DNA of 64,000 nt from Blasia pusilla (GCA_050084515.1 CM114271.1:1922001-1986000), one strand, 5' to 3'. Numbered from the stretch's first letter, positions 1-26,908 are shown. Notes: generated by a model from the sequence alone, not told the origin. Numbers and translations are program-made.

Positions 1-262
1 GTCATTCCACTACCATTTGAAAACTAGGATCTACAAGGTTGACATGTATTGAGTGTAGTATGGTGAAAGAAAACTGTGTATTATCCACGATATAAGGTTG
101 CTCATATGTGCATGGGGGTTTGTTTTGTGTCTCGTCATGAGGGGTATGAGAGTTATGCAAATATGGATATTTTAGTTGGTAGTAACTTCCACAAGTGTGA
201 ATGCTAGCTGTTAGTGTGGGGTTGCTTGGAAGTATGCGAGGCCTTCTAAGTTCTAGCACCAT

Positions 263-778
263 TGTCACGTCCTTTAGGATAGATCGGTGAGATCTAGTAG
301 AGCGCCTTCAAGAGTAGTGGAAGACATGCCTAGGAGTTCGAGGATGACCTGCTGAGGCCCCGGGAAACCTAAGAGAGCAGGTTTCCCCTTCGTTTTGGCT
401 CATTTGGAGCCATATTGAGGAACTTACTAGTTTGGGTATGTACCATTTTGAGCATATGATCGACATTCTATTTTTGGTAAGTGGCCCTTGACCTCCTACA
501 TCAGGTCAAGAGCCAAGGAGGTGACTTGGGAGAATAGGTTACCATGGAGAGAGCTTGGGAGAGGGGAGGGGTATATATTCCAAGGAGAGAGAGCTTGAGA
601 GCTCATTCTCTCTTTGTTGAACCTCTTGGCATGAGGCGGCGGAGCTATGGTCCCTTGCCTTGTGAGTGTAACCCAAGCCTCTCATTAGGAGAGTGGGTTT
701 GGTTTGATATGAGAGCGAGTGCACACCTTTGAGAGCTATGGTGTGAGATTGTGTAGAGAGAGATTAGATCTTATTTTA
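263..778 (+). repeat. El-1 terminal repeat A1
   Basis: Near-identical to 18777-19115 (which lacks ~175 bp) and to the reverse complements of 42996-43511 and 31044-31562. Confidence 0.92.
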
Positions 779-1359
779 CAAAGAGAGAATGAGAGAAAGA
801 GAGAGCTTCATGGGGGAGCTCGCTGGTCACTCGATATTTTTGTAGGATGGGGACCGTGTTCCCCATCCAACGGCTCATGGGAATGCTCATGGGAGCAAGG
901 GTTGCTTGGATTGTTCTTTGCATTTGCCGATTTTTTGTGTGGAAGAGTGGCGCGCGGAAGCGCTGCCCAATTTCTGATAGGGATTGAGTATGGGGGCGGG
1001 TTGCCCCATGCCGGTGCTTTCGGGAGCACCATGTCGCTTTCTGATTTGTATTTTTACAGGTTTTACATTTTTGTTGGGAGGAATCAACGCGAAAGCGCTG
1101 CCGAATTTTGTGTAGGAGAAAGAGACATTGGGCTTTACAACAATCCCTTTCAGTTTTTACTGGAATGTCTGATTGTAAATATTTTTTGATGTTGGCGTAG
1201 ATCGTAAAGTTGTGCACGCTGTGCAACAAACTATGTGCAATTTGGAGTTACGAGCAAAATGTTATGATCAATCTTGCAAAACTACCATTGCTAGGCGATT
1301 TTTAGGGTTAAATTGTGCAAACCCTAAACCAGCCGCCACCGCCGCCGTCGCCGTCATAG

Positions 1360-1475
1360 TCAACGGTCAACCATCACCAGCGATGGTCAACCATCACCAC
1401 CAATGGTCAACCATCACCTTCACCATTCGTCCGTCACCATCAATGGTCAACCGTCACCATCAATGGTCCACCGTC
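1360..1475 (+). repeat. Short tandem repeats (CAAYGGTCAACCRTCACC-like) in the El-1 leader
   Basis: About 4-5 imperfect units. A reduced version lies on the minus strand in El-3 near 42350-42420. Confidence 0.7.
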
Positions 1476-2454
1476 CGTTATCCACCCTTGGTTGCCATTG
1501 CCGCCGTTACGGAGTGGAGGGTCTTCCACAACGTTCGTTGATTATCGGACTTGCGTCGCCATCACGTACTTTGTTTTGGCAGCCACCATCATCAACCTGT
1601 GATGGCATATGACCTCCTATTATAGTGTTTGAGTTTTGATTTCATGCTGCTATATTGTGATTGGTAGCCGCTCAACGACGATCGAGTACCGTGCCGTGAC
1701 GCCCGTAGCTGCAACGCGTCGCCGATTGCCGCGCCGTGCCGCTCGTGGCCGCATTGCACCATCTTGATCGTGGAGCCACTCCGGCATTGTGGAGCAGAGT
1801 GTGGGTTTATTGTTGATTGAGGAGGGTATGCCGCCGAGTGCCGCATCCCATCATCGATGGCCGTGCCGTTCGTAGTCGTTTCGTGCCGCCTGCAACGCCG
1901 CATCGTTCCGCTGGAACCGCACTGTCTATCGAGGAGTTTTGAGCAACATCAGCATGGGAGGAGCATGACTTGCTGATTGGAGGAGTTGTCTCCACGACCG
2001 AGTTGGGGTTGAGATTTGCAGTTGCTGAAGAGCGATATTGATATGTGTTCAGGTTACCCATTATGGTCCTTTACCCTGCACGTGTGAGGGATTATGGGAT
2101 TTGGGTAGTTTATTTGGGGATATTGGTTGTGTGGATGCTGAGAGCATCATTTATGTATGTGGTTTATGGGACATACACCTGTGTGGGATATCTTGAGTTG
2201 AGGGTAGGTTATCGATGAAATGATAACCTGGTCGATTTTCCCCACCACGCCGCTTATTCCCGCACGTTACATGTCTCGGGGAGGGAGAGTGTAGATCGAG
2301 TGCCGCATGTTTGAGATGAGTGATTGAGGGATTACTCACGAGGCAAGAGTGATCGGGTGAGAAGGGCACGAGGGTCATCACGACGTCTGTTGGGGACTTT
2401 GAGAGGCGAGGTGGTGAACCCGAGAGTAGCTCTAGAGGTTTTACGCGGAGTGGC

Positions 2455-4370
2455 GTGAGGTTCCGAGGGTCTTCACTTCAGGGACCACCTCGACCTCCTT
2501 CTGTGTCATCGTCAGACAAGGGAGAGGGTGTAGACGAGTTTTTGAGCACATCGCCACACATTGTGAGTGGTCCTACTAGTTGGGTGTACGAGATGGATGA
2601 CCGGGGTAGAGGACTACGTAGGTTTTCAGGTGCAGTAGGTACGATTGAGTTCCACGATTTCATAGCAGAGTTAAGGAGTTGGTGCGACTCTCAGAGGGCC
2701 AAGAACTCTAGAGAGTTCAACCCATTTACATCATGGAATGCTATGTTCCAGCATTTAGAGGGGGCACCCATGGACGATTACCATGAGTTTTCCCACAGAT
2801 ATGCCCACAAGATTGAGGCATGGCAACTCTACTACGACCCACACTATGTGTCGTGGGCGGAGCCGTTCCCAGATGAGGAGGAGGAGTTAGGAGAGGCTAC
2901 TTCCTCTTCCACTAGTGATGTTTTAGGAGGGATCACTCGCACTGGAGCAATTGCACCGTCTTGTCGGGTTCGTCCCAGGTTCAACCCGTGGTTGAGTTCT
3001 TTGCTGAGTTGAGGGCGAGCTACTAGGAGGTACGGAAGGAGAAGTTGCGGAGCATCCACAACTTCCAGAGGCGCCCGGGTGAGAGTTTACGTGAGGCTTA
3101 CACTCGCTTGCGCCGGTTGATCAACGTCACTCAGGGGATGATAGAGGCTCAGGCTATCCAGTCATGGTACGCGATGCTGGACCAGACCCTACGGCCACGA
3201 GTGCGGGAGGGGGTGCTTTTTATGAACACCTCCCCTACGTTGAGAGATGTTTTTAGGACCACCAAGAACATTGAGCGCAATATGGCAGAGGAGAGCGTAG
3301 CCACCATGGGTTCTGGGCCAGAGCACTCGCGATTGGCTGCACCACCTGTGCAACAATGTGGACTCCGAGATAGGTCAACTGTGGCACCACGAGCTCAGGG
3401 AGGATACGGGGAGCCGTGGCACAGAGACCTGCGCCTTCATATGCGGCTCAACAGCAGCCGCCTACTATTACTTGTTGGTCATGTGGTGGAGCCCATCATC
3501 AGCGCCATTGCACTCGTCAGGGTCATGGACGTGTGCCTCAGCATGAAGGAGGAGATGGTGCTGCACCAGGAGGTTATCAGTGTGACTATTGTCAGAGGTA
3601 TGGTCATACACGCGCAAGGTATTTCAGTTTACATCCTGAGTTACATCCGGACTAAGGGCCAGAGAGGGCACCAGAGTGAGTAGCCGGTCCGGGTGGGCCT
3701 AGAGATTGTGCACGGAGTGGTCCGTTGGGACGAGGAGCTGGAGTTGCCCGGACGGGGGTGGTGGAGCTGCCCGTGGAGGAGGTAGAGTACCACCACCTAG
3801 ACGCGCCGAGGGAGACGCCGGACGTGAGGCTGGGATGGCTGCTCAGATACAGCAGCTACAGGAGCAGATTGCCACTATGGCATTGAGGTTACCTGATGCA
3901 GGATCCGTGGCATCGACATCATATGGAGCAGCCAGAGATCTGGAGGATCTGGTTGGATGTCTTGGGTTGCCCAGATGGAGGCCGCCGGAGTTTGACGCCA
4001 GCGTGGAGCACGCAGAGTTGGATCCATGGGGAAGCCAGAAAACAGACTAGGCTTCCTCAGTCTTTCACGTTGTTCGAAGCGATGAGGACCCCATTGATGG
4101 GTCCTCATCAAAGTTCCTTGAGAGTTGGTGATGTTGTTGGTGTGTAGGCACGGAGGGCGATGGGAGAAGCGAGTGCGACGACTCCTATTGTTGATGCTCA
4201 AGAGGGGCATGTGTCGAGCACATTGTTGGGGGTGGCCACCATTGTGTACCGCACTCCTTTATTTTTTGCTTCCGATGTTATACGCCTGCCAAGGCTTTTT
4301 GGCTGGCCGCTTCACTATGTGAGCGCGGAGTTGGAGTTCCTACATCACGTTCAGAGGTGATTGTGGATTA
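2455..4370 (+). pseudogene. El-1 gag (frameshifted) with two zinc knuckles
   Basis: ORF pieces 2455-3012, 3045-3683 and 3416-3655 are homologous to El-2/El-3 gag pieces (GTIEFHDFIAE / GTIELEDFMQE; RPGESLREAYTRLRRLI). Knuckles CWSCGGAHHQRHC and CDYCQRYGHTRAR(Y). Start codon not resolved. Confidence 0.8.
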
Positions 4371-4371
4371 G

Positions 4372-4935
4372 GTGATGGACCTGCCCTTGGAGCGGATGCT
4401 TAGACCGTCCACGTTAGATTCATGGCAGGCTGCGGCTGCTAGGATGTCGGAGATGCCCGCCAGACCCACGATAGAGCGTGCCATGGCTTCTCCCGGTGTT
4501 GTGTTGCTGGATAACCAAGGAGAGGTCTTCCAATTGGTGAGTCTTAAAGGTAGAGCTTTTAGTCTGCAACGCGTCTTGTTGGATTCAAGAGCGCAACCCC
4601 TGATGTTGGGGAAACCGTCATTCAGAGGATTGGGCTTGATGAGAGCCGATGTGGAGCGTTGTCCATTCCGGATATAGACATCCTTGGGTGGAGCAAGTAC
4701 CACACAATATATCACCCGACAAGAGGTTGTGGTGAGGATTCGCCCGGGACATCCTACAGATGAGTCCATGGTGCGCGCCAAGGCGATAGTGACTGATGCA
4801 GAGTCCTACGACGTCGTGGTTGGTGGAGTAGTGTTATACCCAATGGGGTTTGCCCTGGATTATTGGGAGGAGTCAACATCCTACAGACCAGGATGGCAGT
4901 CAGGTGATGGGTGCCTTAGTTCATTACCCGTTTGA
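4372..4935 (+). pseudogene. El-1 aspartic protease domain
   Basis: RVLLDSRAQPLMLG (El-3 VLLDLGAQPL; consensus LLDSGA) and downstream YDVVVGG, typical of retropepsins. Confidence 0.8.
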
Positions 4936-5292
4936 TTCACAGGTGCAGTGATCGAGCAACGACCAGGAGAGATGGCGACCTTAGCAGCATTTAGCAGTGC
5001 CATCACTTGGCTTAGTGATTTGATTGAGGGACATGTCCATGCAGAGGATACTCCCGTTCCTGACATTTCTATGGAGAGGAGTGTTATGGTAGCTGCATCA
5101 TTCCGTGGAGGAGAGGTGCCGTTGTGGGGCTCGACTAAGGAGCTTCGACGATTGGCAGATGAGCACATGCAGACCGCGTGGAGCGAGGCGTTTGCACCGG
5201 AGCGTGATGGGTCTGAGGAACACAAGGTAGCAGGGAGTGCTACGATGACACCCTTGGATACCACATCCATTGTGTAGTGTACCCCGGAGGAG

Positions 5293-6245
5293 GGTATTCG
5301 AGTGTTAGATCTCTTTGGAGGGATTAGCACCGGGTTAGCTGCTGTTTTGCCGGCAAGAGTGCGAGTACAACAGTACCTGTATGTGGAGAGTGATGATGTT
5401 GCAAGGCGCGTCTCACTACGACATGTGGCGCAGTTACACCTACGTTTTCCCGACTTATTTTCTGCATCCGTAGTATAGGGGTACGAGAGTTCCCTACCAA
5501 GGGATATTTCGTTGTTGGGAACGCAGGACTTAGAGCGGGTAGGGACCATTGATTTGGTCATTTCCGGTTGGCCATGTCAGGGCCAATCGAGTGTTGGAAG
5601 AGGTAGCGGGTTGCCTCACACTCGGTCCAGGTTGTTTTGGGAGATGTTGAGGGTCTTACGGCAGTTGCAGGAGCACCAGTCTCGTTCTCCAGCCTACATT
5701 CTAGAGAACGAGACTGTGCCGATCTTAGGAGACTCCAGATCACGGGTGGTGATGAGTGCTCATCAAGTGCGTGCCTAGATCGGCCCAGTAGTGTTCTTGG
5801 ATGCGGCGAGTGTAGGTTCTAGAGCCCATTGCCCACGTCTATGGTGGACCAACTTGGTGTCCCATGCGGTGTTACGGAGGACGTATGCGAGAGTGGAGCG
5901 CCCCTCCCATTTGTTAGTGGATTCCATTCTAGATCCAGGTTGTGGATCACAAGTAGTGAGGCACGATGATCGACCACCACTGACTATGGTCAATAGGGTA
6001 GGCAGGCCGCGGGCAGCCTTTCCCACGTTTGTGAGTTTTCCCGCTTCCTATGCATACAAGGAGGCCGGTCCTGGCTTGGTTTGGGATGACCAAGTTTAGA
6101 GGTTGGTGGAGCCCAACGCCAAAGAGAGAGAGCAGGAGTGACACCCTCACAGGAGTGATGGCAGTCCCGTCAGTATCAGAGGCATCACGATGCCATGTCT
6201 TGGGTCAGGCGATGGACCTGAACTGCTTGACATGGATCCTCAGCT
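5293..6245 (+). pseudogene. El-1 DNMT3-like cytosine-5 DNA methyltransferase domain
   Basis: Motif I IRVLDLFGGISTG, motif II YLYVESD, motif IV DLVISGWPCQG, motif VI YILENE, motif VIII LDAASVGSRAHCPRLWWTNL, motif X VLGQAMD. Same reading frame as the upstream protease; contains in-frame stops and a frameshift near 6130. Confidence 0.92.
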
Positions 6246-6589
6246 TGGGAGTGGCTGAGCAGCGTCGTATGAGATCGCGACAGATCACAGCGGTTGCGTT
6301 GGTGAGCCCCATGCCTACCGAGATGGTGGAGGCAGTGGCTGAGGGCGAGACCCGAGGAGATCTATGCACCAGGGGAGATCGGGAGAGACACCCTTGTACT
6401 TCTTGGGATATTTTGCATGTACGCCAGGAGATGATAGCCACAACATCGAGCCTGGTTTCGGGCACTGCACGTGGAGGAGATTAGAGTTTGCAATTGGCTG
6501 TAGGAGAGCGGCTCAGTGTTGTTGTTCGAGACGGGGTTGCACCATAGCAACCACCGATACCCGCGTCGGAGAGTCCTACCGTAGTCACG

Positions 6590-8040
6590 ATGGAGACTTG
6601 GGAGCAAGATATGGGCCCTAAGTTGACAGGAGGAGAGCGGCGCCGAATACATCAGTTCCTCAAGAGTTATAAGAGCTGCTTTGTATTTAGCATGGAGGAT
6701 TTGGGGACGCTGAAGGGATCGGGGATCCACATTGAGTTGTCGAGTGATACGCCGATCTTCCGACGACCCTACAGGTACAGTGATATGGAGAGGGCTCTCA
6801 TTCAGAGTAGGAGCCAGGACTTGGTCTGAGCAGGACTAGTGGAGATGTCGCATGGGGAGTATGCATCTGCCATTGTGATGCCCGCCAAGAAGGATGTGCA
6901 TGGCAACTAGATGGATAGGCGGATGTGTGGGGATTACCGACCTATCAATCGTGATTTAAGTCCGATAGGTATGCCATGCCCACCCCGAGGAGATCTTTGA
7001 TGCGATTGGTCACGCAAAGGTCTTGATTCATTGATTTTGAGCGGAGACCATCAACTGCCTATCAGATTGGAGGACAGGCAGAAGACGGCATTTTGGGGCA
7101 TCGATCCTCATGGGAAGGATTGTTTGTACTAGTGGCGGTTCTTACCATTTGTGTTAAAGAACGCCCCGGCTGAGTTTCAGAGGGTCATGGATAGGATCTT
7201 GGCTGGTCTGGATTTTCCTAGGTGTTATATTGATGACACCGTAGTCTTTAGCGCCACGGTTGAGGAGCATGAGCGACATCTAGAGGAGGTGTTTCGACGA
7301 TTGCAATTACATGGGCTGAAGCTACATCTAGGCAAGTGCAAGTTCTTCTGCGACCAGATTGAGTACTTGGGTCATACGATATACCCAGGGAGCCTTGGTG
7401 TTCAGCAGACAAAGATATAGGCTATCTCACGCATTCCACGCCCTACCAATGTGAGCCGTGTTCGCGCATTCATGGGATTGGCGAACTTCTATCGGCGATC
7501 GTCAAGGGATTCAATTTGATTATGGCCGTTGACCTTGCGACCAAGGTGGATCACGAGTGGCACTAGGGGATGAGCGGGAGCGAGCATTTCGATTGCTCAG
7601 GACGGAGTTGGCGTCCGCGCCCATCTTGAGGAGACCGATCACGGGCGTCCTTTCCGATTGCACCACAGATTGGAGCATGTTGGGGCTTGGGCGGTGCTCA
7701 CCCAAAGATGATGATGAGGGTAGAGAGTTCGTGGTGGCTTACGCTAGCCGCTCGAACAATGTTGCAAAGGTGAAGTACAGCTCGTATGAGGGTGAGTGCT
7801 TCGCTACAGTGTGGGCTGTCGCGCATTTTAGGTGTTACTTATTCGGAAACCCCGTTACCATCATCACTGATCATCAACCACTGAAGTGGTTGATGGAGTC
7901 CGATAAGCTTACAGGGAAGCTTGCGAGATGGGCTCTGTTGTTGCAGGAGTATGATTTTCACGTGGTACATAGACCTGGGATGCTCAACAAGGATGCAGAT
8001 GGGTTGAGTCGTAACCCATGCCCGAGTCAGCGAGATGCGA
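6590..8040 (+). pseudogene. El-1 reverse transcriptase and RNase H
   Basis: PIFRRPYRYS, RMCGDYRPIN, LKNAPAEFQRVMD, CYIDD, KCKFF...YLGH; RNase H TDWSMLGLG...YSSYEGEC...TDHQPL...DADGLSR. Confidence 0.93.
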
Positions 8041-8199
8041 ATGGAGCTCGATGGCATGGAGAGAGTGATGAGGAGTCGGTGCTAGGATGGCACGTGTCTG
8101 CCTATTTAGGCATGTTGGCTATGGAGAGCCAGAGTGTGGAGACTTTGATGGCGAGGTCTAGCGGAGAGTCCTTGGATCCTGAGGCAAGTGAGGACACGA

Positions 8200-9221
8200 C
8201 AAGTGGCCGAGATATTCATGATGATGGAGTAGTCTTGGAGTACCTTCGTACTGGTAGCGTTGCGAGCACCGTGGATGCTAGAGAGCGGGATCGGATCCTA
8301 CAGCGGGCTAGACGGTTCCGTTGGGAGGGGACACATGTTTTGAGGGTTTGGGAGGATGGCAGAGTACGCATAGTGCCGCATCCTTCACAGAGAGCACGAC
8401 TAGTGCAGCATGCCCACGAGGAGTTGGGTCACTTTGGGGTGAAGTGGACGTACAGCTTGCTCGAGATTCAGTATTGGTGGCGAGGCATGCAGACTGACGT
8501 TCAGCAGTTTGTTGCCAGGTGCATGGTGTGTGATCGGATCCGAACATCGTTCAATGCTCCAACTCCACAGTTGCATCCATTACCGATCATGGGCTTAGGG
8601 TATAGATGGAGTTTGGATTTTGCACGACCTTTGCCCTTTGACGGAGCGTCACAGTCGTTATGTGTTGGTGATGATCGAGCACTTCTCGAAGTGTATCGAG
8701 TTGGTTGCATTGCCTGACAAAGCAAGTGAGGGAGTAGCTTATGCCTTCCTTGACAGAGTGCTGAGTCATTATGGCGCACCGGCTGAGGTGTTGACAGACC
8801 ACGGTACCAAGTTTCGCGCTGAGTTCCACGCCTTGTGTGATCAGGCGCTCATCGATCATCGTACGACTTCGCGAGATCATCTTGAGGCGGATGGATTAGC
8901 GGAGAGAGTTGTGCAGACGGTGAAGAGGTGTTTACGCAAGTATGGCTTGCAAAGAGGTCACCTAGGAGATTGGGACCTTCAGTTGCCCTGATTAGCGATG
9001 GGATGCAGATTCAGCAGGTAGGTATCCTTAGCGTCTTTTTCACCGTACTTGGTACTTTATGGCCGAGAGCCAGATTTACCTGCCGCCATTCGTCGAGATT
9101 CTGGTGCGGTGCTCGACCTTGATGACCCAGATGTATGGATGTGAGTATGTTCTCAGAGGGCTGAGTTGTTTTGGAGAGTGATGCCCATGGCGTTCGAGAA
9201 CTTGGCGATTGCGTAGCATCG
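8200..9221 (+). pseudogene. El-1 integrase (HHCC and DDE core), interrupted by El-2
   Basis: HAHEELGHFG...CMVC; WSLDF, VLTDHG, GLAERVVQTVK. Reading resumes at 18029 (AIA*HR|DTLRYATIQGG). Confidence 0.92.
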
Positions 9222-9969
9222 TGTCGTGCGAATCCACATCGTCATACAACATACATCGCTGACATACCATACTCACATACATAGATAACATAGATGAGAG
9301 TATCCACAAACACAAGTGTACCACAACTGAAATCCGTGAAAGACCTAGTGTCATAAAACACGTATACAATCACATACAATCGAGCCAAACCCACTCCACG
9401 ATGGAAGAATCTAGGTCAAAGCTTGCGGGAAACACCATAGCCAAGAGCTCTACTCACTACCAAGGCTAACTCCCAACGCAACAGGCTCAACTCAAAGAAC
9501 TGACTGTTCTTTGAGGGCACTCCACCTTATATCCTCCAACCTAAGAGCGATGGGAAAGTCACCCCAACTGAGTAACCCCCAACCCTATGTATGGAACCGC
9601 ATCTCTACCAAGCCACTACGGTCCTACATAAGGAATGGCCTCTACTAGCACACCATACTCTACGACATAATCTGTATGGTCATGACAAATGTGTCGTGCT
9701 TGAATCCACATCCTCATACAACATACATCGACATACCATACTCACATACATACATAACATAGATGAGAGTATCCACAAACACAAGTGTACCACAACTCGC
9801 CCCCCTAACTGGCGGTTAGGTCCCTCTAACTCCCAGGTAGCCCTATACATCTACTACATGCTATACACCTTCTTGGGTGCCCGAATCAGAAGGCCGGGTG
9901 CTAGGTTGCCCCATCGTTAGTCGCACATCTGTAATCCATATCATGCAAAGATCAAGTCATCTACCTCTC

Positions 9970-12900
9970 CTAAGTACATCGAGGACAAACCCACCTTCCA
10001 CTAGGAACAACATCCATACGTGGAGTCAAACACATCATGTGCCAACCCTAGAACACCGATCACACACCAACATACGGGTTGCGTTACCAGCAGATCCACA
10101 CAACATGCACCTCAAGCTAGCACGTATCATGGCTAAGCTTGGGTCAACAGTACCATCCACATTTGGAAGATGACATGGCGCACAATTACGCACATGGTCC
10201 TTCCAAACAACTCCATCACGACCCTCCAACATGAGAACTCCAGAAGCTAACACCTCGCAAGACTCGTAAAATAGTGCGGCCTGCCGTCACATCCAACGTT
10301 GTCGGTGCAATCTGCTGCAAATAGACATAGTCCCCCACATGGAACCTACGAATCGATGGTTGATAACCTCCACCTTGAATGGTTGCATACCGCAACGTAT
10401 CCCTGTGTTGAGCAATGGCAAGATTCTCAAAGGTCGTTGGCATAACTCTCGAAAGAAAGAGCTCCGCCGGCGAGAACACACCCTCATCCAAATCTGGGTC
10501 ATCAAGGTTCACCACCTCACTAGACTCCCGACAAATTCTTTCTTGGCAAGTCTGGATCTTGGCCATATAACAGAAAATAAGGTGAGAAGGAAGCCAAGGA
10601 TGCTTGGCGACTGAACCTATACCCCATGGCTAACCATGGCAATCGAACATCCAGTCTCAAGATGCCCCTTCAGAGGCCATACTTGCGCAATGCCCTCTTC
10701 ACCGCCTCGAACCACACGCTCAGCCAAACCATCCGCCTTGGATGATCTCGAGATGTGGTCCGATGATCAATCAACGCCTTGTCACACAAGACCGAAACTC
10801 ACGAAACTCAGACCGGTCGGTCAAGACACTTCAGCTGGTGCACCAAAATGACTAAGCACTCTATCTAGAAACGCATACGCCGTTCCCTCACTTGCCTTGT
10901 CCGGTAATGCCACCAACTCAATCCACTTGGAGAAGTGCTCCACCATCACCAACACATATCAATGATGTCGTACAGTGAACGGTAACGGTCCCGCAAAGTC
11001 CACACTCCAACGGTAACCCAACCCCATAATAGGCAAGGGGTGTAATTGTGGTGTAGGGGCATTAAATGATGCCCTCACCCGGTCACAAACCATACAACAT
11101 GACACCAACTGCTGCATGCCACGCCATCAATATCGGCCAAGGAGTAAGCTATACGACGCTTTACCCCAAAATGTCCCAACTCCTCATGGGCATGTCGCAC
11201 AATGCCTCTCTCTTGAGCCAAATGTGGCACTACTCGTACTCTACCATCCTCCCACACGCGGAGAATATGTGTTCCCTCCAATCGATACCTCTTAGCACGT
11301 TGAAGAACACGGTCTCGCTCCTTGGCACTCACTATGCCTGGCACCCTACTGGTCCATAGGAACTCCAACACCAACGCATCATCATGAATATCACGCTGAT
11401 CCGTACTACCATCTCCAACCTTAGGATCTGAAGGGTGGCCATCTACCCTCTGACTAGAGTAAGATATCATGTGGTCCTCCATACTAGAGTCCACCCCTTA
11501 CCAACATAAAAAGGCGGATGCATGCCAACCTGGCACCATCTCCTCATCAACCTCGCCATGCCATCTAGCCCCAGTTGTATCCTGTTGGCTAGTACATGGG
11601 TTCCTACTCAACCCATCAGCATCAAGGTTGGCAACTCTAGGTCTATGTACCACCTGGAAGTCATACTCCTGTAAGATAAGAGCCCACCGTGCAAGCTTCC
11701 CTGTAAGCTTGTCCGACTCCATCAACCACTTGAGCGGTTGGTGATCAGTAACAAGGGTAAAGTGGGTGCCAAACAAGTAACACCTAAAGTGTGCCACAAC
11801 CCACACTACTGCCAAGCACTCTCCCTCATATGAACTATAGCGCGACTCCGCTGCATTATTCGAACGACTTGCATAGGCCACCACAAACTCCATGTGCTCA
11901 TCATCATGTTGTGTCAACACCGCTCCAAGTCCCAACCTACTCCAATCGTGTGTAATCTGAAATGGGCGCCCTCGATAGGTCTCCTCAAGATAGGCGCGCC
12001 ACCAATCGGGCCTTAAGCTCCACAAAAGCTCTCTCGATCATCTCCCAAAGTGCCACTCTTGATCTGATTTCAGCAATTGGTTCAAAGGCTTTGCCATAGC
12101 ACTAAATCCTTTCACATACTTCCGATAGTAGTTCGCCAATCCCATGAATGCTCGAACTCTACTCACATCTACCGGACGTGGAATAAGTGCAATAGCCTCC
12201 ACCTTTGCTTGCTGAACTCCCAAACCACCTGGATAGATCACATGACCCAAGTACTCAACATCCTCATGGAAGAACTTACACTTTCCTGGATGCAAACGTA
12301 GACCATGAGCTTTCAACCGCTCAAACACCATATGCAAATGTATCTGATGCTCCTCCACCGTGTTACTGAACACCAAGATATCATCAATGTAACACCGAAC
12401 AAAATCCAACCCTTCTAGGATCTTGTCCATCACTCTTTGAAACTCGGCAGGTGCATTCTTCAACCCAAAGGGTAAGAATTTCCACTAGTACAAACAATCC
12501 TTGCCATGAGAGTTGACACCCCACGAATCTTTGTCTTGGCCTTGTCACTCTCCGAATCGGCAATTGATGGTATCTGCCCGAAGATCCAAAGTATCTGAAA
12601 ATCTTTGCCTGTACCACCACATCAAAGATCTCTCAGGTGTAGGCATGGCATACCTATCGGCCTTGGTTTGCCGATTGATAGGGACGGTAATCTCCACACA
12701 TCCGCCTATCCGTGTAGTTGCCATGCATATCCTTTTTAGCAAGCATGACGGTGGCCGATGCATACTCTCCATGCGACAACTCCACTAATCCAGCCTCCAA
12801 AAGGTCCAACGTCCTACTCTGAATCAAGTCCCTCTCCATATCACTATATCGGTAGGGACGACGGAAGATTGGCGTATCACTAGCCAAATCAATCCGTATA

Positions 12901-15900
12901 CCGAGTCCAACCAGAGAACCCAACTCCTTCATGCTAAAGGCAAAACAACTCCTATAAGCATGTAGGAGGCGTGTCAGCGTCGTTTCTCACCTCCCGTAAG
13001 CTTGGGCCCAAGTAATGGCTCCCAAGTCTCCTCCTTTGGCACACTAGAGGGAGAGGGCGATGCCATTGGTCGCTACTCATAACCCCCTCACAAGATGGTA
13101 CACCCTTAGCTACACCATCATCTGAGCAAATAACTCCTCCACCAGCATGAGCAACCAACTCCACATGCCCAGCCATTACATCCCATTTACTCCAAGGATG
13201 CAAAATACTACTCTCCTCGCCCCCAGCCGATGCCTCTACCGTCCCGGTAGCCATCGAGCTCATTACAAGGGGTGGAAGACCCTGAGACATAGTCCGAAGT
13301 CGATTTGCTCGACCATACCAAGACTCAAAATCCAAGTCAAACAATTCAGGTCCATGGCCTGACCCAACACATGACGTCGTGAAGCCTCGGAAATAGAAGC
13401 AACGGGCATTTGTCACACCAATAGCAAATCCCATCGCGACGCTCTCTCGATCAAGTGTTAGGCTCCACCAAGCCGCCGCACATAAGAATCCCATACAAGC
13501 CCCGGACCACCTTCCCTGTAGGCATGTGACGAGGGAAAACTCACAAATGTGGGTAGTGCCATCCTAGGCTGGCCCACACGGTTCACCACTGCCATGGGTG
13601 ACCGATCAATAACCCTCACCACTTGAGAAAGTCGCCCAAGATATCAAGATACTATCCTTTGAAGGCGAGGATCCCAGACCGCATCATATGCTCGACGTAG
13701 AACCTCCCTAGGCAACAAGTTTGTCCACCACAAGCGTGGGCGATGTGCACGCTGAGCCAACTGCGCATTTGCATCCAACAACACCACCTGGTCCAATCCA
13801 AGACCGCACCTCATGAACACTCGCCATCATCCGGGTCCGAGTGTCACCCAACAATGGAACATTCTCCAAAATGTAAGCTAGAGCACGTGCCTGATGAACC
13901 TGAAGATGTCGTAACACCCGTAACATCTCCCAAAACAATCGAGACCTAGGGTCATGTAATCCCTCACCACGACCAGACGTGTATGACCCTGACATGGCCA
14001 TCCAGCAATCACCAAATCCACAGGACCAACCCTCTCAAGGTCCTGCGCCCCCAACAATGCAATGTGTGATGGTAAAGCACGCTGGTACCCACGAATAGCT
14101 GATGGCGACAACAACTCGGGATATCTCGCATCAATCGACCAATATGTCGGGATGAGACTCTCTGGGCCGTCTCATCTCGCTCCACATACACGTATCTCCG
14201 CACAGGAATACCGGCCTGCAACACTACAGCCAAACCAGTGCTAATCCCACCAAAGAGATCTAACACACAAATGCCCTCCGACGGATACTGCCATACAATG
14301 GGTGTAGTATCCAAAGGGATAACTAATGGACCAGAAGTAGGAGTCCGTGGGGCCTCCTCTTCCTCGTGAGGTATAATGACCTCACACCAAGCCTCTGCAC
14401 TAGGCGATCGCCTCTGCCGTAGTGCACCGCTGAACTCCAAAGTGGCACATCCAACGATGAGGATGCCACTGCTGCAAAAATAAGGACCTCCTCTACCTCC
14501 TCATGCGCAGGAGAATCCATAGCAGAAAAATTACCCTCCAAAAAGTCTCCTGGCCAAGTGACTACTCCACTAAAACCAGCCACAGATGCTAACATTGTTG
14601 GGAAGACCCTCTGGTCGAGCCCCGAAATAAATCTCACAGAACTTGGCTCATACGTCCATCCCTGATGCCAACCAGGTGTAAGACGCTGTCTCGATCCGGT
14701 AATCCATCCGAAAACCCATCGGTACAACATCGCTCCTCCAACTAGTACATCATACGACTCGGCCGATGTGACTACCGCAGATACTCCCAACCGGGAGCTA
14801 TCAGTCGCATGATCTGGTCTCAACTGTACAGAAAAATTTTCCCGTGTCATGAATTGAGACCTATCATTGGCTCCTCCAAGTGATGTTTGAATCTGGAATG
14901 GGCAAGGCTCAAGCTCGACCTCCGAATACCCAAACCAATACATGCCGCCTTTCCCAACATCAAGGTTGGGCACCGAGTCTAACAAGACTCTATCTGGTCT
15001 ATACACTGTCTGTAGGACTCACCAATCGGAAGATCCCACCGGTTGTCCAACATACATACACCAGGTGTAAGCCTCTCACGATCAATGGTGGCCGGGTGGT
15101 AATGCATCCATCTTCGCCATTTCTTTGCTCGCTAAGTAGCATGGTACTCAATGCTACACGACATAGAGGGTCGCTCCACCGCAACATCCTCATCCACCTC
15201 AACACGTGTAGCAAGAACACCCCACGTTCACACAATGTGGTCGCTAGCTGAAATACTGAGCTAAGTCAACTCCTAAAGCCATCGGCTCCGTGGGCGAAAA
15301 CAATGGGGATCCCAACACTAAAGTTGCCATCCGCACATCTTGATCGATCTTGCATCCGTGTCTACTACACGCCGATGTAGATGCCTCGATCCCCAATGTC
15401 GGCTCAATAGGCTGCGAGGAACCATGGATGGAGTCCTAAGCACCTCGAGACAACAAGAATGATGGGAAGCCTAGCCTGCCTCCCAGCCTCACCCCTCTAT
15501 GGGTCCAACTCCACAGTAGCACCACGTGGCTCTGACGTTCGAGTGGCTCCTCTCATAAGTGCAGCTGATGCCTTAACCTGTGCTGCACTCGCCATATAAG
15601 AGAGATCATCCCCTCCATAAGAGGTGGAAGCTCCTACTCCCGAACCTGATCTATGCTGGATACCAGCCATAGTAGCCAACTTCTGCTCCAACTGCTCAAT
15701 CCTGGCAGCCATAGCTGACTCTGTCGTAGTGGTAGGGTTGCCACCGTAGGCTCTCCAACCACTGGTCCACCTCTACCACCTCGACCTCTCAGAGCTACTC
15801 CACCACGGCCGCGGCCTGATCTCAACTCTGGATGAAGATCAAAGCAACGCTCTCGAGGATGACCTGGTGTCCCGCAATGATCACACTGAGTTGGGGCCGA

Positions 15901-17069
15901 CTGAGACCCATCCTCCAAAGTCCGTCTCCCATCCTCTTGGGGACAAAACTTCCTAACATGATCACCTCCACATGTCCAACATGACTGTCCTTGCTGCGGG
16001 GCAGCAAATGAAGGCAATGGTCTCTGCGCAAGTGTCCCTCTAGGACTTGACTAAGGTCGTGTGTACCCCCCACGACTCCCACTACTACTACCACCACCAC
16101 TACTACGAGACTGTGAGGTGGGCGGTTGAACACGAGAAGTAGTAGTTGTATCCCTACTGAATGCGGATGTCACCACTCTCTCCTTCACCATGTTAAGCTC
16201 AATCTTCTCAGATAGAGCAAACACATGGGTCAATGTGGGTGAATCATCACTCATAAGAGTAGCATCACGTACCCTACGGGCGCAAATCTCTGTCCAAGAT
16301 CCCATACCAAAAGCTGGATCGCTCGATCCTCAATCACACCCTGGGTAATGAAATCAGCGTCGATACGAGTGTATGCCTCACGAAGACTCTCACCGTCTTT
16401 CGCTCAAATTCTGAAGATTCCTCAACTTTTCCGTCTTCACTCCCTGATAGTTCTTCTTCAACCTCTTGAAGAACTCTGCAATCGAGATGAACGATGGTGG
16501 GGCACTAGTACCTCCACTAGTACCCCCCTCCGGCCTCGCACTGCACCACTCAACGTCGGGCTGGCTAGCATAGTAGGAGCACTACTACCAATACCACCAT
16601 GGGTGATAGACACATAGCCTGGAGACCAATATTGTCTCCATGCCTCAATCTCAGCAACATGGTCCTTCCTAAACTCATGGTTATCATCCATGGGTGGTCC
16701 TTCCAAGTGCTGAAACAACCCCTTCCAAGCCAAGAAGGGTGTAAACAACGTGGCGTTCCGCAACATCTGCATATCACACCATGTATCAAACTCCTGCATG
16801 AAGTCCTCCAACTCAATGGTACCCACTACACCCGAGTATCGTCGTGGGCCCTTCATGGCCCCATATCCACCGTCCATGTCCCAAATCAATGGAGCTGCAA
16901 CACTCGATAACAACGTAGAAGACTCGGTGTTTGGAACACCCTCGTCCTCCTCTTCATCAACCGTCGGAAGTGGAAAAGGTAGCCGATACCTAAATCCACT
17001 CCGTGTGAAACCACCATTGTCCGCACCACGGTCCCCAACCAGACCACTCGACAGCTCCGTGATGACCAA
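9970..17069 (-). pseudogene. El-2 Gag-PR-DNMT-RT-RH-INT-PHD polyprotein (many frameshifts)
   Basis: Knuckles CWTCGGDHVRKFC and CDHCGTPGHPRERC; RVLLDS; DNMT motifs; CYIDDILV; YSSYEGECLAV; HAHEELGHFG; C-terminal CMLC...CDRC...WVCPRC. Confidence 0.9.
13330..14278 (-). pseudogene. El-2 DNMT3-like methyltransferase domain
   Basis: ICVLDLFGGISTG, YVYVERDE, GPVDLVIAGWPCQGH, RSRLFWEMLRVL, YILENVPLLGD, AHRPRLWWTNL, VLGQAMD. Confidence 0.92.
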
Positions 17070-18028
17070 CGCCGATGCCGCACCACCACCAAATTACCCA
17101 AGTGATGTCGATGTCGCTCTATTATTGTAGCTCTCCTAGCTATGGGTGTAGGCAACCTAACCTCTCATCACCACAAGAAGCCTCCCATGGTCTACTGGTC
17201 ATCACTCCAGCCTCACTATCAGTAGCACACATGAGTAACACTACTCTGGAAATCAGCGTCAACCCTAACAATGGGCGCGCAAGCAAGAAGCACGATGGAG
17301 GGGATCCAAACACATGAAGTCCAACGACAACCCTCCAATCGCAAATGGAAATCAAGGTAACACAATCCACCAAACGTGGTGCCCCCCTGAATCCACAAAA
17401 CCCACCACACAATTCTAACGCAATAGCTACTCCGCCGCGGGTCGATGACGTACTAGTCGAACTTGCAGCACCTGAAAATATCACCTGCATGGAGAGGCTA
17501 CACCGTACTATGCGCTAGAGGTACATCAACCAAAAACCTGAGATGCATAAAGCGCCTAACACATCTCCGAACAGCACCAAATGAGCTACAACAGTGTGTA
17601 CACTGGCATAGTTAAGAACTCAACAGTTAAGCGTCCTCCAGGCAGAATAGCCCAAAGATGGGTGACCAGTTATGCAAAACTCAAATCCCAAATCCTGCAA
17701 AAATTACCTCACGCCCAAGCAAGCAAGCTTGCTTGCTTGCTCCTTGCTCCTTGCTCCTTACTCCGCCTCTCACGCCCACTCGCCCCGAGCTACCACGAGT
17801 TGCCTCGAAGCCTCGAAGCCTCAAAGAACTGACTGTTCTTTGAGGGCACTCCACCTTATATCCTCCAACCTAAGAGCGGGCCCTACTGGGAAAGTCACCC
17901 CCAACTGAGTAACCCCCAACCCTATGTATGGAACCGCATCTCTACCAAGCCACTACGGTCCTACATAAGGAATGGCCTCTACTAGCACACCATACTCTAC
18001 GACATAATCCGTATGGTCATGACAATCG

Positions 18029-18461
18029 GGATACGTTGAGGTATGCGACTATTCAGGGTGGTGGTTAACGACAAACTATCCGGAGGTTTCATTAGGGAGA
18101 TTATGTCTACTTGCAACAGACGGCACCGACGATGTTGGATGTGACTGTAGGGCGCACTATCTTGAGAGTACGTGACGTTTTGCCATCCGGTGTTCTCTTG
18201 CTGGAGGGACGCGATGGTATGGTATGGAAGGACCATGTGCGTAATTGTGCACCATGTCACCTTCCTAACATTGATGGTACATTGGATCCGAGCTTAGTAG
18301 TAGTTCCTACAGGCTTGTGTTGTATGTTGTGTGGTTATGCTCGTGGTGCGGTCACAATACTAGTCTATGATGGTTTTTCGAGAGGTTGGCATATGGCATG
18401 TCCGACGCCACCTCTCACTAGGGTTCCTTGGGGACGATGGATGTGTCCCAGATGTACATAG
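18029..18461 (+). pseudogene. El-1 integrase C-terminus with PHD finger
   Basis: CCMLCGY...VYDGFSRGWHMACPTPPLTRVPWGRWMCPRC. El-2 and El-3 retain CDxC, giving a C4HC3 PHD pattern. Confidence 0.88.
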
Positions 18462-18647
18462 AGGAGATACTAGGTAGGTTTCGATACTGACTTTTTCTCT
18501 GATATGGATGAGAGGAAGGCGACTAACAATGGGGCCACATGAGCACCCGACCTTCTTGCTCTTAGCGTCCGAGAGATGTATGTTATGGTAGGTAGGGATA
18601 GATGGCTATCTAGAGTTAGAGGGACCTAACCACCAGCTAGGGGGGCG

Positions 18648-18774
18648 ATTGGAGATATTTGGTACTTCTTGTCTCGTTTTTTGGATGCTATGAGTTAGCA
18701 TGGGATCGTGCGTGTTTGTGTGTGTGTTCGGTGACAGCGATGTATGTTGTGTAGCGATGTGTATGCGCACGACA
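18648..18774 (+). repeat. El-1 internal repeat B1 (ends GCACGACA), preceded by G-tract TAGGGGGGCG
   Basis: Matches B2 at 19116-19225 and El-3 B1/B2 on the minus strand. Confidence 0.9.
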
Positions 18775-18776
18775 GT

Positions 18777-19225
18777 TGTCACTTGGTTTATGATAGATCG
18801 GTGAGATCTAGTAGAGCGTCTTCAAGAGTAGTGGAAGACATGCCTAGGAGTTCGAGGATGACTTGGGAGAATATGTTACCATGGAGAGAGCTTGGGACAG
18901 GGGAGGGGTATATATCCCAAGGAGAGAGAGCTTGAGAGCTCATTCTCTCTTTGTTGAACCTCTTGGCATGAGGCGGCGGAGCTATGATCCCTTGCCTTGT
19001 GAGTGTAACCCAAGCCTCTCATTAGGAGAGTGGGTTTGGTTTGATATGAGAGAGAGTGCACACCTTTGAGAGCTATGGTGTGAGATTGTGTAGAGAGAGA
19101 TTGGATCTTACTTTAATTGGAAATATTTGGTACTTCTTGTTTCGTTGTTTGGATGCCATGAGTTATCATGGGATCGTGCGTATTTGTGTGTGTGTTCGGT
19201 GACAGCGATGTATATGCGCACGACA
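18777..19225 (+). repeat. El-1 A2+B2 terminal unit (TGTC...GACA)
   Basis: A2 (18777-19115) matches A1 apart from an internal deletion; B2 (19116-19225) matches B1. Confidence 0.9.
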
Positions 19226-19369
19226 CCATTGCAAGGCCCCACATCAATTTTGGGTTTTATTCCAAAGACACTTTGAAGTCTATCCCATCTCTTTGGAGTT
19301 GCACGCAAGGTTGCACACAAACGGACAAGTCCACGGACATGCGCGGCTTGCACCCGAGCCCGCCGCGCA

Positions 19370-20556: not shown

Positions 20557-21240
20557 TCTATATAATAATGGGTGACCACATATGCACAATAAGACAAAAT
20601 AGGAAACATCCTTGAATTTTGTTTTTTGAGCCCTATTAGATGGGTAGAAATAGAACAAAGGAAATGAATAGGGATGTCAGTTGAATATATATTAATAAAT
20701 AAATAAATAAATAAAATTATAATGGGTCATTTTAAATATCACTAAAAATAAAAAAATGATAAATAACCAAAATTTTAGAATTTCTACCTCAATTCATATT
20801 TGATGAAAAAAGGAAAAAAAATTTTTATGGAGTAGATTTTGTTTAAATTTTATGGAAAAATAAAATTACTTAGTGTATTGGGATATCATTTCAATTTGAA
20901 TGGAGAATTGTAATTATTAAGAATAGTGAAATGTTATTACTCTTCTAAGATTTTAGAAAATAGAAATCATATTTAAAATTTGAAGTCAATAACATGGCCA
21001 TTTTTAAAAATAATTATATCAATTCACATGTGATATTTTGGGAAAGGAAAATAAATTTGAACGGAAAAGGAAAATTATTCTGTTAACTAAAATTAACTAA
21101 GATTTTGAAATGTGAAAATTTCTTATTCTTTTTAGATTAAAAAAAGGAAATTTTACTTAAATTTTAAAATTAAATTAAAATTTAAACATAGTTTTAAAAA
21201 TTATTATTGACACCTGGTTTTTCAAGCCCTATTGACATGT
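20557..21240 (+). mobile_element. AT-rich non-autonomous Helitron-like repeat (3' end not found)
   Basis: Starts A|TCTATATAATAA and is collinear with 62833-63460 (e.g. CTCAATTCATATTTGATG, GGAGTAGATTTTGTTTAAATTTTATGGA). Confidence 0.6.
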
Positions 21241-24548: not shown

Positions 24549-26908
24549 TACTTCTTAATCCTTCAAGGGCACTCAAATGCTCTCTTTCCTCCGAGTTACT
24601 TTTAGGATGTCTGCACCGGTACTCCTCCAAATAACGCTCGATTCGACGAGTGGGATCATGCATTTGTGAATGCCCCAAATTCCACATGATTCTTGTTTAG
24701 GTGCTATTATCGTCATATGACTTGTACGGCTCACAAATGACAACCATTGATTGATGGCCAATGGTTGATTAGATAAGCTATATCCTCAAGATGTTGTATA
24801 ACATATCCCATTACGTAACTCCCTTGTGAGGGGCTTTCATGTGTAGAGAGAACGATACCACTCCATGTGAGATTCATCCCTTCAGACAGATCTAGAATGA
24901 CGGATCAGGTTGACTTGATGATGGTCGACGATCTAATTACAAATGGTAGAGGAGAGCCTATTCTTACACATGTGGTTGCACAAGAGAGATTGTTGTAAGG
25001 AGACGTGACAATAGGGAAGAAGAACCAATTTTGTATTCGTCGTCACGAGAGGCATCGCTTGATGCTATCAACTGTTGAGATGTATGGAGATATGGGGCAA
25101 GAGATCTGACACATTCTTTGTTTTCCAATCACTCCCTAGGTCATACTAATCAAGCATTATAAGAAATCATATGTCTCCCACAAACTTCCTTCTATTTTCC
25201 TATAGAAGCCATGGACGCTCTGTAAGTTTTAGGTTCGTGTTCCCTAATAGGTCCTCCATAATTGAGTGAAGAACTCAACAACAAGGTTGAACCTAGGGCG
25301 GACCCCAACTGGATGATGTAACTTGCCCTCAATGGCCCCCACCTCCATATATGGATATCACTTGAGCTTGAGGAAGTAGCCTTTCTTACCACCTCCTCAT
25401 CATTAGAAATGGTTAAGTCCATCACACATAATGAGGATCATAATGTTGCCTCCAAGCCTAAGTCACACCAAATCTTGAACTTTTGTTATGAATTCATGTA
25501 ACTTGGTGGTATCAACGGCCCTTGAAAAATATGTATTGTCCTCTACCTTGGTCGTCTCTTCTCCATCTAATGATTACACAACTGCGAAGAGGGGTTGAGG
25601 TTGTTCATCACAAAATAACCCTCAATATCTTGCATACCTCTACAATATTATTTTCATCGTGTTTAAGTTATCCATTCTAGTCGTAGAACTTGATGTTGTA
25701 AGGATTTTCCCAAGGTATTGGGCATACGAGATGTTATGGTGGATGGTAGAGATGTATAGAAAGTTGATGTTTGGATTAGTGGGATACATATATCCATGTG
25801 GTGTGCCTCATAGGGATTTCCAATTACCTATGATAGGATAGATTTGACATAGACCACATGCACTAAAGAAGCATTACTATACTATACTACCTATTGCCAC
25901 ACTCTACGCCTATCAGATTATGTGAAGGAATAAATTAGACCGGCGTACACTTGGGTAGGATTTTTTGGGATTTGGCTTAGTGAGAACAAGAGGTCATAAT
26001 GCGAGAGGGGCTTAAGAGTCACCATGCGCAACATCCTTTCACGGATTCAAAGGAAGGGTTGGTGAGAGTAGTCTTAGAGGGTTTTTTGAAAATTATCACC
26101 ATCTCAATTGTAATACAAACTTGTTGTCTCCTCAATGAGCACTAACATGCATAGCTCAATCTCCTTAAGAAATATGGTACAACCAAGATCTCTCGTCAAT
26201 GACATGTGCACACAAGCCATCTGCTCTACCCTAGCCTATGCTAGTAAGTTGAGGGGAAATTCTTAAAATGGAAAGCAAACCTATCCAAAAGTAATGAACT
26301 TACTTGAAATGAATTTGATCTCTTCTCAACTACCTCTATATCTAATCCTCTAATCATGGATAAGATGCACGATGAACAAGGTTAGGCCTCTCGCCATAAG
26401 AGCTCAATATGTTTAATACCATTCGACTTGAGTCTCATTGGCTCAATAAGAACATCTATATGAATATTACTGGCACTTAATAATGTGCCATACCACCGAA
26501 AAAAGAGAGGAAATGGGACTTATATACGTAAGTGTCGGTAAGTCACATCTAAGGCAATAAATCACAATTGACCTCCTAAAATGAGCATTATAAAAGACCC
26601 CTATAAGTCTTGATGTAATCTTACCATGACACATCAACCAAAAAGAGAAAAGACAAGATATATGAGATAAAGATGAGAGTGGGGCCATAGATTGGTGAAA
26701 AGGAAGATAAGGATGAGGTTGGGGAATATGAGGTTGGTACATTAGAGTTCAAAGGAGATCCTCTCATGCTCTGAGAGTATGACACGTGGTAGAGCTAATT
26801 TGTCTTCATTGTACATATCTCTAAGTATATAAAGGAAGAGGAGAGGCCTCGATGGGCATTCTACCTTTGGGCAACTCTAGAGTGGTTCCGTGAGCTGGAG
26901 AGTTACAA

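Follow-up and report, generated by a model that had tools for sequence, protein, structure and literature searches.

Can the split direct repeats that are treated as a hallmark of tyrosine-recombinase retroelements be produced by an element with a retroviral-type DDE integrase? This question is raised by a stretch of 64,000 nucleotides from Blasia pusilla (GCA_050084515.1 CM114271.1:1922001-1986000; the window), in which three elements, El-1, El-2 and El-3, are laid out as A1-body-B1-A2-B2 in place of two complete long terminal repeats (LTRs). A first-pass annotation, made from the sequence, had described this layout together with an HHCC-DDE integrase, TG...CA ends and target-site duplications (TSDs). 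We consider it probable that the elements are aged and degraded members of a Ty3/gypsy (Metaviridae) lineage of streptophytes, in which a cDNA with LTRs of the composition B-NN-A, where NN is a short spacer, would have been joined head to tail and opened internally.

Three elements share a permuted layout and 4-bp target duplications

Block positions were obtained by self-comparison of the window, and ends and duplications were then read off the sequence. The twelve repeat blocks previously claimed for the three elements were all found where they had been placed, and only the extent of the El-2 A2 block, given before as 9491-9687, had to be redrawn, to 9687-9329. All three elements share the order A1-body-B1-NN-A2-B2, TG...CA termini (TGTCAC or TGTCATG at the start, ACGACA at the end) and TSDs, which can be read directly and are 4 bp long. 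The parts of the elements are as follows, in window coordinates.

263-19225, plus strand: whole El-1, from the self-comparison
259-262, plus strand: left TSD of El-1, CCAT, equal to 19226-19229
263-778, plus strand: El-1 A1, with a part like the unique 3' region (U3) that holds a TATA motif at about 572-578, then the repeat and unique 5' regions (R-U5)
602-617, plus strand: El-1 "r", predicted transcript nucleotides 1-16, about 30 nt 3' of the TATA motif and complementary to the primer binding site (PBS)
778-793, plus strand: El-1 predicted self-priming PBS, directly 3' of A1
4438-9221, plus strand: El-1 degraded pol, with many stops and frameshifts (Pfam, tblastn)
18029-18458, plus strand: El-1 integrase C terminus and PHD finger, beyond El-2 (Pfam; tblastn match 18024-18458)
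18638-18647, plus strand: El-1 G-rich polypurine tract (PPT), abutting B1
18648-18774, plus strand: El-1 B1, with ...ACGACA at its end
18775-18776, plus strand: El-1 NN spacer GT, which separates the CA of B1 from the TG of A2 in the internal palindromic CA-NN-TG
18777-19115, plus strand: El-1 A2, with an internal deletion of about 170 nt relative to A1
19116-19225, plus strand: El-1 B2; at the A2/B2 boundary the U5 end is joined to the U3 start, with one additional A
19226-19229, plus strand: right TSD of El-1, CCAT
9222-18024, minus strand: whole El-2, a diverged family member inside the El-1 integrase
18024-17820, 9797-9692, 9687-9329 and 9328-9222, minus strand: El-2 A1, B1, A2 and B2, with the 4-nt spacer CATT between B1 and A2
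18028-18025 and 9221-9218: El-2 TSD, CGAT/CGAT
30915-43511, minus strand: whole El-3, with TSD ATCT/ACCT
43511-42996, 31692-31565, 31562-31044 and 31043-30915, minus strand: El-3 A1, B1, A2 and B2, with AC as the NN spacer
42996-42980, minus strand: El-3 predicted PBS
26663-26907, plus strand: uninterrupted paralogue of the site into which El-3 inserted, reading AGCT at the junction
28475-28537, minus strand: a fourth, truncated copy, comprising a 63-nt 3' end of an El-1/El-3-type B block (...CGCACGACA) followed by unrelated flank

The A and B pairs are 94 to 97% and 94% identical in El-1, 95.6% and 93.6% in El-2, and 90.5% and 90.6% in El-3. Within an element the two pairs are thus alike in identity, which is what one would expect had each pair started out identical when the element inserted. 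The El-2 A2 block has 359 nt, of which 205 nt are common with A1 and 162 nt are absent from it; the El-2 A1 lacks its final 162 nt together with the sequence beyond.

The ends of the inserted unit were established in two ways besides the duplications. Both El-3 ends are confirmed by the paralogous empty site at 26663-26907, and the El-2 boundaries by RNA reads that join 9217 to 18025, with 4 letters that fit either side; these reads represent El-1-family copies without El-2. The TSDs, the empty site and the RNA joint together show that the inserted unit is A1...B2, not A1...A2. A separate insertion of A2-B2 beside B1 was also considered and rejected, since in El-1 no separate target duplication flanks A2-B2. 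The El-3 target is itself a host repeat (30769-30895 and 43512-43626), whose second, uninterrupted copy lies 4 kb away.

The layout recurs at about 20 further insertion sites

Matches to the A and B blocks were sought in 80 metagenome loci chosen by alignment to pol; 53 had at least one. Nine loci, representing eight distinct sites (L049 and L054 are one), carry all four blocks in the order A...B-A-B. The same order is seen in L007, where an internal deletion has cut B2 to its last 29 nt, and in L046 the contig ends inside A2. At 16 loci B-A-B lies just 3' of pol, the 5' side being beyond the sequence available, and by their flanks these contribute 11 further distinct sites. There are thus about 20 distinct long-form insertions in the metagenome in addition to the three in the window, and the expectation that the layout would hold beyond the original three copies was borne out. 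A B block was found beside A1, on either side, at none of 21 distinct 5' ends (18 loci and the three window elements), and no copy with two complete repeats was present among the mapped loci and window elements. The first-pass annotation had named a predominance of copies with two AB LTRs and a PBS as the outcome that would make the three elements rearranged or tandem derivatives; not one such copy was seen. On the sequences compared, the split repeats characterize the lineage as a whole and are no peculiarity of the three window copies.

Target duplications accompany the long forms generally. All four letters agree in El-1, El-2, L007, L024 and L078, three of four in El-3, L041, L044, L066 and L073, and none in L067, so that at least three letters agree in 10 of the 11 complete long forms. 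A solo A-B in L070 is flanked by CAAT/CAAT. There is also a class of short forms, in which the body, PPT and B are followed by unrelated flank with no A2-B2. These occur at 14 distinct sites (L006, L008, L011, L020, L027, L030, L031, L036, L040, L047, L057, L060, L068 and L077), and duplications around A...B were TGTG/TGTG in L006, three of four letters in L040 and none in L027. The short forms could have come from either B1 × B2 recombination or integration at the CA of B1.

All complete metagenome copies are degraded, and terminal repeats were not seen in the available sequence of L001 and L061, the two loci with long open reading frames (ORFs). The single site represented by L049 and L054 holds a 4.4-kb member with the full A...B-A-B order and a truncated B2, whose interior encodes only reverse transcriptase (RT), RNase H, integrase and PHD, with no gag-like region, protease or methyltransferase.

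A predicted self-priming PBS, a PPT and an internal CA-NN-TG

The absence of a PBS had been given as a feature of these elements, along with tRNA-independent priming. Indeed, no tRNA-type PBS follows A1. However, the 15 to 17 nt that begin with the final base of A1 match exactly, as reverse complement, a stretch within A named r. This stretch lies 26 to 32 nt downstream of a TATA-like motif, at the distance expected for a transcript start. What stands of the earlier claim is therefore the lack of a tRNA-type site, and what falls is the lack of any site, since a predicted PBS of the self-priming type, as in Tf1, follows A1; the proposal of tRNA-independent priming is supported by this self-complementary stretch, as judged by sequence.

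The pairing partners fall into three classes that are nearly unrelated in sequence, each fully complementary. In El-1 and El-3 the pair is ACAAAGAGAGAATGAG against CTCATTCTCTCTTTGT, in the L024 class the sequence is ACTCAAAGAACTATGT(T), and in the G-run class it is AATTCTAGAAAAACT. Perfect r-PBS stems of 13 to 17 bp are present in 12 of 22 5' ends (L024 and L032 being the same insertion) and stems of at least 10 bp at the same position in 16 of the 22, where the longest stem across 100 shuffles per copy was 10 to 13. Within-family analysis with RNAalifold gave a compensatory CG to UA change in L078, at column 9/154. When the El-1 leader (602-794) was folded, the closing stem paired r with the PBS, with a z score of -5.4, and none of 200 shuffles folded as well. 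For Tf1-type self-priming in plants, Neumann et al. 2019 (PMC6317226) used a criterion of at least 10 bp of complementarity located 0 to 5 bp downstream, and the PBS predicted here, which starts 0 to 1 nt past the 5' repeat, lies within those limits. These observations suggest that a Tf1-type self-priming PBS is present, with r as the RNA 5' end predicted from its distance to the TATA motif.

At the other end of the body, all 28 copies printed have a G-run (TAGGGGGGCG or CTGGGGGGGG) immediately before B1. B1 ends in CAYGACA and A2 begins with TGTCRTG, giving a palindromic CAYGACA-NN-TGTCRTG in which the spacer is 2 nt (GC, AC, GT, AT or TC) in 27 of the 28 copies and 4 nt in El-2, though RNA reads indicate that GC is the usual spacer of the El-2 family. 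Both the spacer and the PPT/B1 boundary are constant in length, unlike the A2/B2 boundary. By ordinary rules the PBS marks the end of U5 and the PPT the start of U3. With the PBS at the end of A1 and the PPT at the start of B1, the repeat made by RT would be B-NN-A.

The A2/B2 boundary resembles joined cDNA ends

The junction that does vary is the one between A2 and B2. The El-3 joint is exact, and that of El-1 has a single A added. In the G-run family, five of 14 copies look exact (one of them, L067, has the right length but two base changes), two have one additional nucleotide, three lack one or two, one has six additional and one has lost eight and gained one; another is without most of B2, and in the last the A2 end is deleted. 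Small length differences precisely at A2/B2 are seen in 8 of the 14. PPT-derived letters are found there in L014 and L067; in L014 a U5 short by about 22 nt is joined to a B2 whose start lies 2 nt within the PPT. In the sequences at hand, this suggests that A2/B2 behaves like a joined pair of cDNA ends, the U5 end and the U3 start.

The coding region is of the Ty3/gypsy type

ORFs in the window, scanned singly with Pfam, match DNA_methylase (PF00145, in the ORF at 5479-5775), RVT_1, RT_RNaseH, Integrase_H2C2, rve and PHD. No Phage_integrase (tyrosine recombinase) match was obtained in the ORFs scanned, in which rve and Integrase_H2C2 are present. In tblastn searches with intact relatives, the order in El-1 was protease at about 4438, DNA methyltransferase (DNMT) at 5302-6135, RT at 6500-7708, and RNase H plus integrase (HHCC and rve) at 7566-9221. 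In the relative L001, Asp_protease_2 precedes the DNMT, which is closest to DNMT3A/3B/3C. The closest full-length relative, P0005, has the Ty3 Gag-Pol as its top solved structure (7q5b, E value of 4e-101) and also matches the Ty3 RT (4ol8); caulimovirus and gammaretroviral RTs score below Ty3. Its PHD matches fingers of the ATXR5, KDM5 and CHD4 type. Pfam, tblastn and the Ty3 structure match thus all agree with the earlier assignment of an HHCC-DDE integrase accompanied by Ty3/gypsy-type enzymes.

As far as these degraded sequences and their relatives can be read, the domain order is gag-like region, protease, Dnmt3-like methyltransferase, RT, RNase H, HHCC/DDE integrase and a C-terminal PHD finger, the last of which probably replaces a chromodomain as the chromatin-targeting module. 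Among named proteins, those of two liverworts, Calypogeia fissa and Marchantia polymorpha, come closest (55 to 66% identity), followed by Klebsormidium and Closterium. Retrotransposon proteins of K. nitens, possibly those of the published elements of that alga, are among the homologues at 38 to 46% identity. The metagenome polyproteins P0060, P0061 and P0066 carry the DNMT between RNase H and integrase, not before RT as in El-1; the position of the methyltransferase thus differs among related lineages.

Public RNA reads cover both families in the sense direction

Three raw RNA runs with the same species label were mapped to the window, with depth taken in 30 bins and the best-supported starts and ends recorded. 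Sense-strand coverage in stranded reads was about ten-fold higher for both the El-1 and the El-2 family, the first mate lying on the minus strand over El-1 and on the plus strand over El-2. Most reads were 90 to 99% alike to the window and thus derive from other copies. Reads of other El-2-family copies, with a loose end at 9328, run from the full A end into the PBS (CTCAAAGAAC...). Between 10442 and 11431 of El-2, reads from other copies (16 to 37 per run) skip 988 nt and have nine other letters between. The ends of this gap, TA..TG, are not intron-like, and it probably reflects a transcribed subfamily of deletion derivatives.

A model for integration and its rivals

In the model that we prefer, the RNA would start at r in A1, be polyadenylated in A2 and hold everything needed. 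Ordinary reverse transcription, self-primed at the PBS and then primed at the PPT, would give a cDNA with the LTR B-NN-A. Integrase would act not at the outer ends of this cDNA but at the internal CA-NN-TG, on a molecule in which the U5 end is joined head to tail to the U3 start, the joint being A2/B2. The integrated copy would then be a two-LTR junction form opened inside the LTR beside the PBS. A direction could be imposed if the left cDNA end were finished early and the plus strand, on reaching the right end, switched to the left end, leaving a nascent, structurally marked junction; a 2-nt staggered cut by integrase at the adjacent CA-NN-TG would produce canonical recessed CA-3'OH ends. Use of the CA of B1 instead of that of B2, or later recombination between B1 and B2, would yield the short A-body-B copies as dead ends. 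The earlier proposal of template jumps via B1/A2 is right as regards topology, but the PBS and PPT positions point to ordinary LTR-type reverse transcription with an LTR of B-NN-A and away from a bridging template of the DIRS kind. The broader statement, that a streptophyte Metaviridae lineage integrates obligatorily via the internal CA-NN-TG on a head-to-tail-joined cDNA intermediate, is one that we regard as possible, short of probable.

Several observations weigh against this model. The r/PBS stem is missing in 6 of the 22 5' ends, which belong to degraded or deleted copies and include El-2. At the resolution of 30 depth bins, the RNA runs gave no read pile-up at r and no readable transcript start or poly(A) site. 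Molecule ends instead pile up at 17863, just upstream of the El-2 TATA motif (26 against a depth of 63 in one run, 20 against 63 in another). RNAs may terminate here, or reads may have been clipped where the sequence of other copies departs from that of El-2; if these are real RNA 3' ends, no R region remains. The contig sets that supplied the metagenome loci are few and related, so that the loci, which make up three diverged subfamilies, probably represent few host species. All copies are old, with repeat pairs 85 to 97% identical, and the integration substrate is wholly what we infer from them. In clustering of B1 and B2, copies were star-like, and the identity of an element's own pair was not above that between elements. 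Finally, four independent insertions of the L024 class (L009, L018, L024 and L048) have a B2 that starts with AATTGTGG, where their own B1 has AGTTGTGG. A common start specific to B2 fits a boundary inherited via read-through RNA better than one made anew.

Such inheritance is what a DIRS/Ngaro-like route, as proposed in the first-pass annotation, would bring, and this is the strongest of the rival explanations, though we consider it unlikely. The RNA would pass from A1 through A2 into B2, the A2/B2 boundary would be carried in that RNA, and the missing 5' portion of A1 and 3' portion of B2 would be rebuilt by template jumps via a B1-NN-A2 bridge, so that the linear cDNA already ended in TG...CA and was inserted by integrase in the normal way. 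This route accounts for the B2-specific AATTGTGG of the four insertions, requires no end-joining step, and yields the same topology as the DIRS-type split repeats described in PMC5890265 (Fig. 1e and 4c legends). Against it, the PBS coincides with the end of A1 and the PPT with the start of B1, positions that define B-NN-A as the repeat made by RT, and beyond the 3' end of B2 no priming site can be seen. Variation in length and PPT-derived letters at A2/B2 are also unexpected for a boundary inherited through RNA, and in the G-run family no alignment column separates B2 from B1.

Ligated two-LTR circles, again with the LTR B-NN-A and with either CA-NN-TG opened at random, would account for the A2/B2 junction and its small imprecisions. 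Retroviral integrases reportedly cleave palindromic LTR-LTR junctions, which lends the idea some precedent. Random opening, however, predicts A-B-NN-A-body-B as often as A-body-B-NN-A-B, and among the 21 distinct 5' ends 13 were of the long form and none had the alternative permutation. Selection cannot conceal the missing class, as dead copies are visible in the same data in the shape of the 14 short forms. We therefore favour a directional origin of the junction and think random opening of circles quite improbable. Lastly, a derivation from an ordinary two-LTR retrotransposon with a tRNA PBS, by rearrangement, tandem duplication or nesting, seems hardly credible, for although nesting is real here (El-2 in El-1, a foreign Gypsy fragment in El-3), the A1...B2 layout with 4-bp duplications recurs in three diverged subfamilies, at a total of about 23 distinct sites, two complete repeats occur in no copy, and A2-B2 is without its own target duplication.

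Relation to known elements

The elements combine traits of groups that are otherwise distinct. With Ty3/gypsy elements they share the order RT, RNase H and integrase, an HHCC zinc motif with a DDE (rve) core, TG...CA ends, a target duplication in the 4- to 6-bp range, and the placing of a PBS beside the 5' repeat and a PPT beside the 3' repeat, although the PBS here is non-tRNA. Ty3/gypsy elements have two complete LTRs, whereas here only A stands at the 5' end and B-NN-A-B at the 3' end. With DIRS, Ngaro, PAT and TOC1 they share the A1-body-B1-A2-B2 split direct repeats, and in both cases the integrated copy corresponds to a circle with two tandem repeats opened inside one of them. Those elements, however, have a tyrosine recombinase and no target duplication, in contrast to the DDE integrase, 4-bp TSD, TG...CA ends, LTR-type PBS and PPT positions and Ty3-like RT found here.

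In IS3 and IS911 circle junctions, abutted ends lie 2 to 4 bp apart. The cleavage of two-LTR circles and the IS3/IS911 pathway resemble the present case in having a DDE enzyme and two abutted inverted ends with a few base pairs between. In those systems the junction is formed by the complete element ends, whereas here the CA-NN-TG is permanent inside each RT-made LTR. Tf1 and sushi/Tcn1 elements likewise have a PBS complementary to the predicted first nucleotides of their own transcript; they differ in having ordinary LTRs and a chromodomain, against permuted repeats and a PHD finger at the integrase end.

The kind of element described here is already in print, and the novelty claimed for it at first was overrated. 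A DNMT3-bearing Gypsy element of Klebsormidium with DIRS-like repeats and Gypsy domains, KnitGypsy-Dnmt3, was published by de Mendoza et al. in 2018 (PMC5890265, Fig. 4c legend), and "streptophytes (Gypsy-DNMT3)" are named in a 2026 preprint (bioRxiv 10.64898/2026.05.21.726589). Like the present elements, KnitGypsy-Dnmt3 has a Dnmt3-type methyltransferase inside a Gypsy-type Pol and, by the legend, A-body-B-A-B repeats plus Gypsy domains; its host is the alga Klebsormidium nitens, whereas the host here is apparently a bryophyte. The present elements are thus a further member in another host group. The main-text parts of PMC5890265 available give no TSD, end sequence, PBS, PPT or mechanism for KnitGypsy-Dnmt3, some of which the supplements may hold. 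Our literature search, which covered sources other than those supplements, returned no paper with a TSD, CA-NN-TG, self-priming PBS, PPT, short forms or a land-plant member, and the dissection of cis elements is new as far as that search went.

The first-pass annotation had raised membership in Troyka, an unusual Gypsy-like lineage that also has non-standard ends. This did not hold. As described by Kojima 2025 (PMC12440569), Troyka is known only from animal phyla, its LTRs are of the ordinary kind, its termini are CG..CG and its target duplications are 3 bp long, where the elements here have split repeats, TG..CA ends, 4-bp duplications and a plant host; the only "split" in the accessible parts of that paper concerns how Repbase stores entries. 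The termini TGTCAC/TGTCATG...ACGACA and the 4-bp duplications in all readable cases exclude membership in Troyka so described.

Other repeats in the window

A fragment of an unrelated Gypsy pol lies within El-3 at about 34441-37700 (plus strand), and another is found at 29170-29853 (plus strand). Both are 22 to 40% identical to the query proteins, and they are only distant kin. An AT-rich direct repeat of 85 nt (20829-20913 and 63147-63231; 89% identical, 42 kb apart) is unrelated to the elements.

Implications for retroelement integration

The same permuted provirus that is known from tyrosine-recombinase elements here belongs to a lineage that has an integrase of the retroviral type, duplicates 4 bp of its target and carries its PBS and PPT in the usual places. 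Programs that look for two full LTRs, a 5' repeat ending in CA and a tRNA PBS probably mis-bound such elements or miss them. The cargo of a DNMT3-type enzyme and a PHD reader bears on the interplay between transposons and plant chromatin.

Integration from two-LTR circles has been debated in retrovirology for decades. If the model is true, integrase must work on an internal site of a junction-bearing cDNA, and the lineage would be a natural case of obligatory "circle-junction" integration by a DDE enzyme. It would also provide a mechanistic tie between LTR retroelements, the split-repeat elements of the DIRS type and circle-junction transposition like that of IS3. The sequence signals identified here turn an odd layout into a testable mechanism, and sense transcripts of both families in public RNA data make that mechanism directly accessible to experiment.

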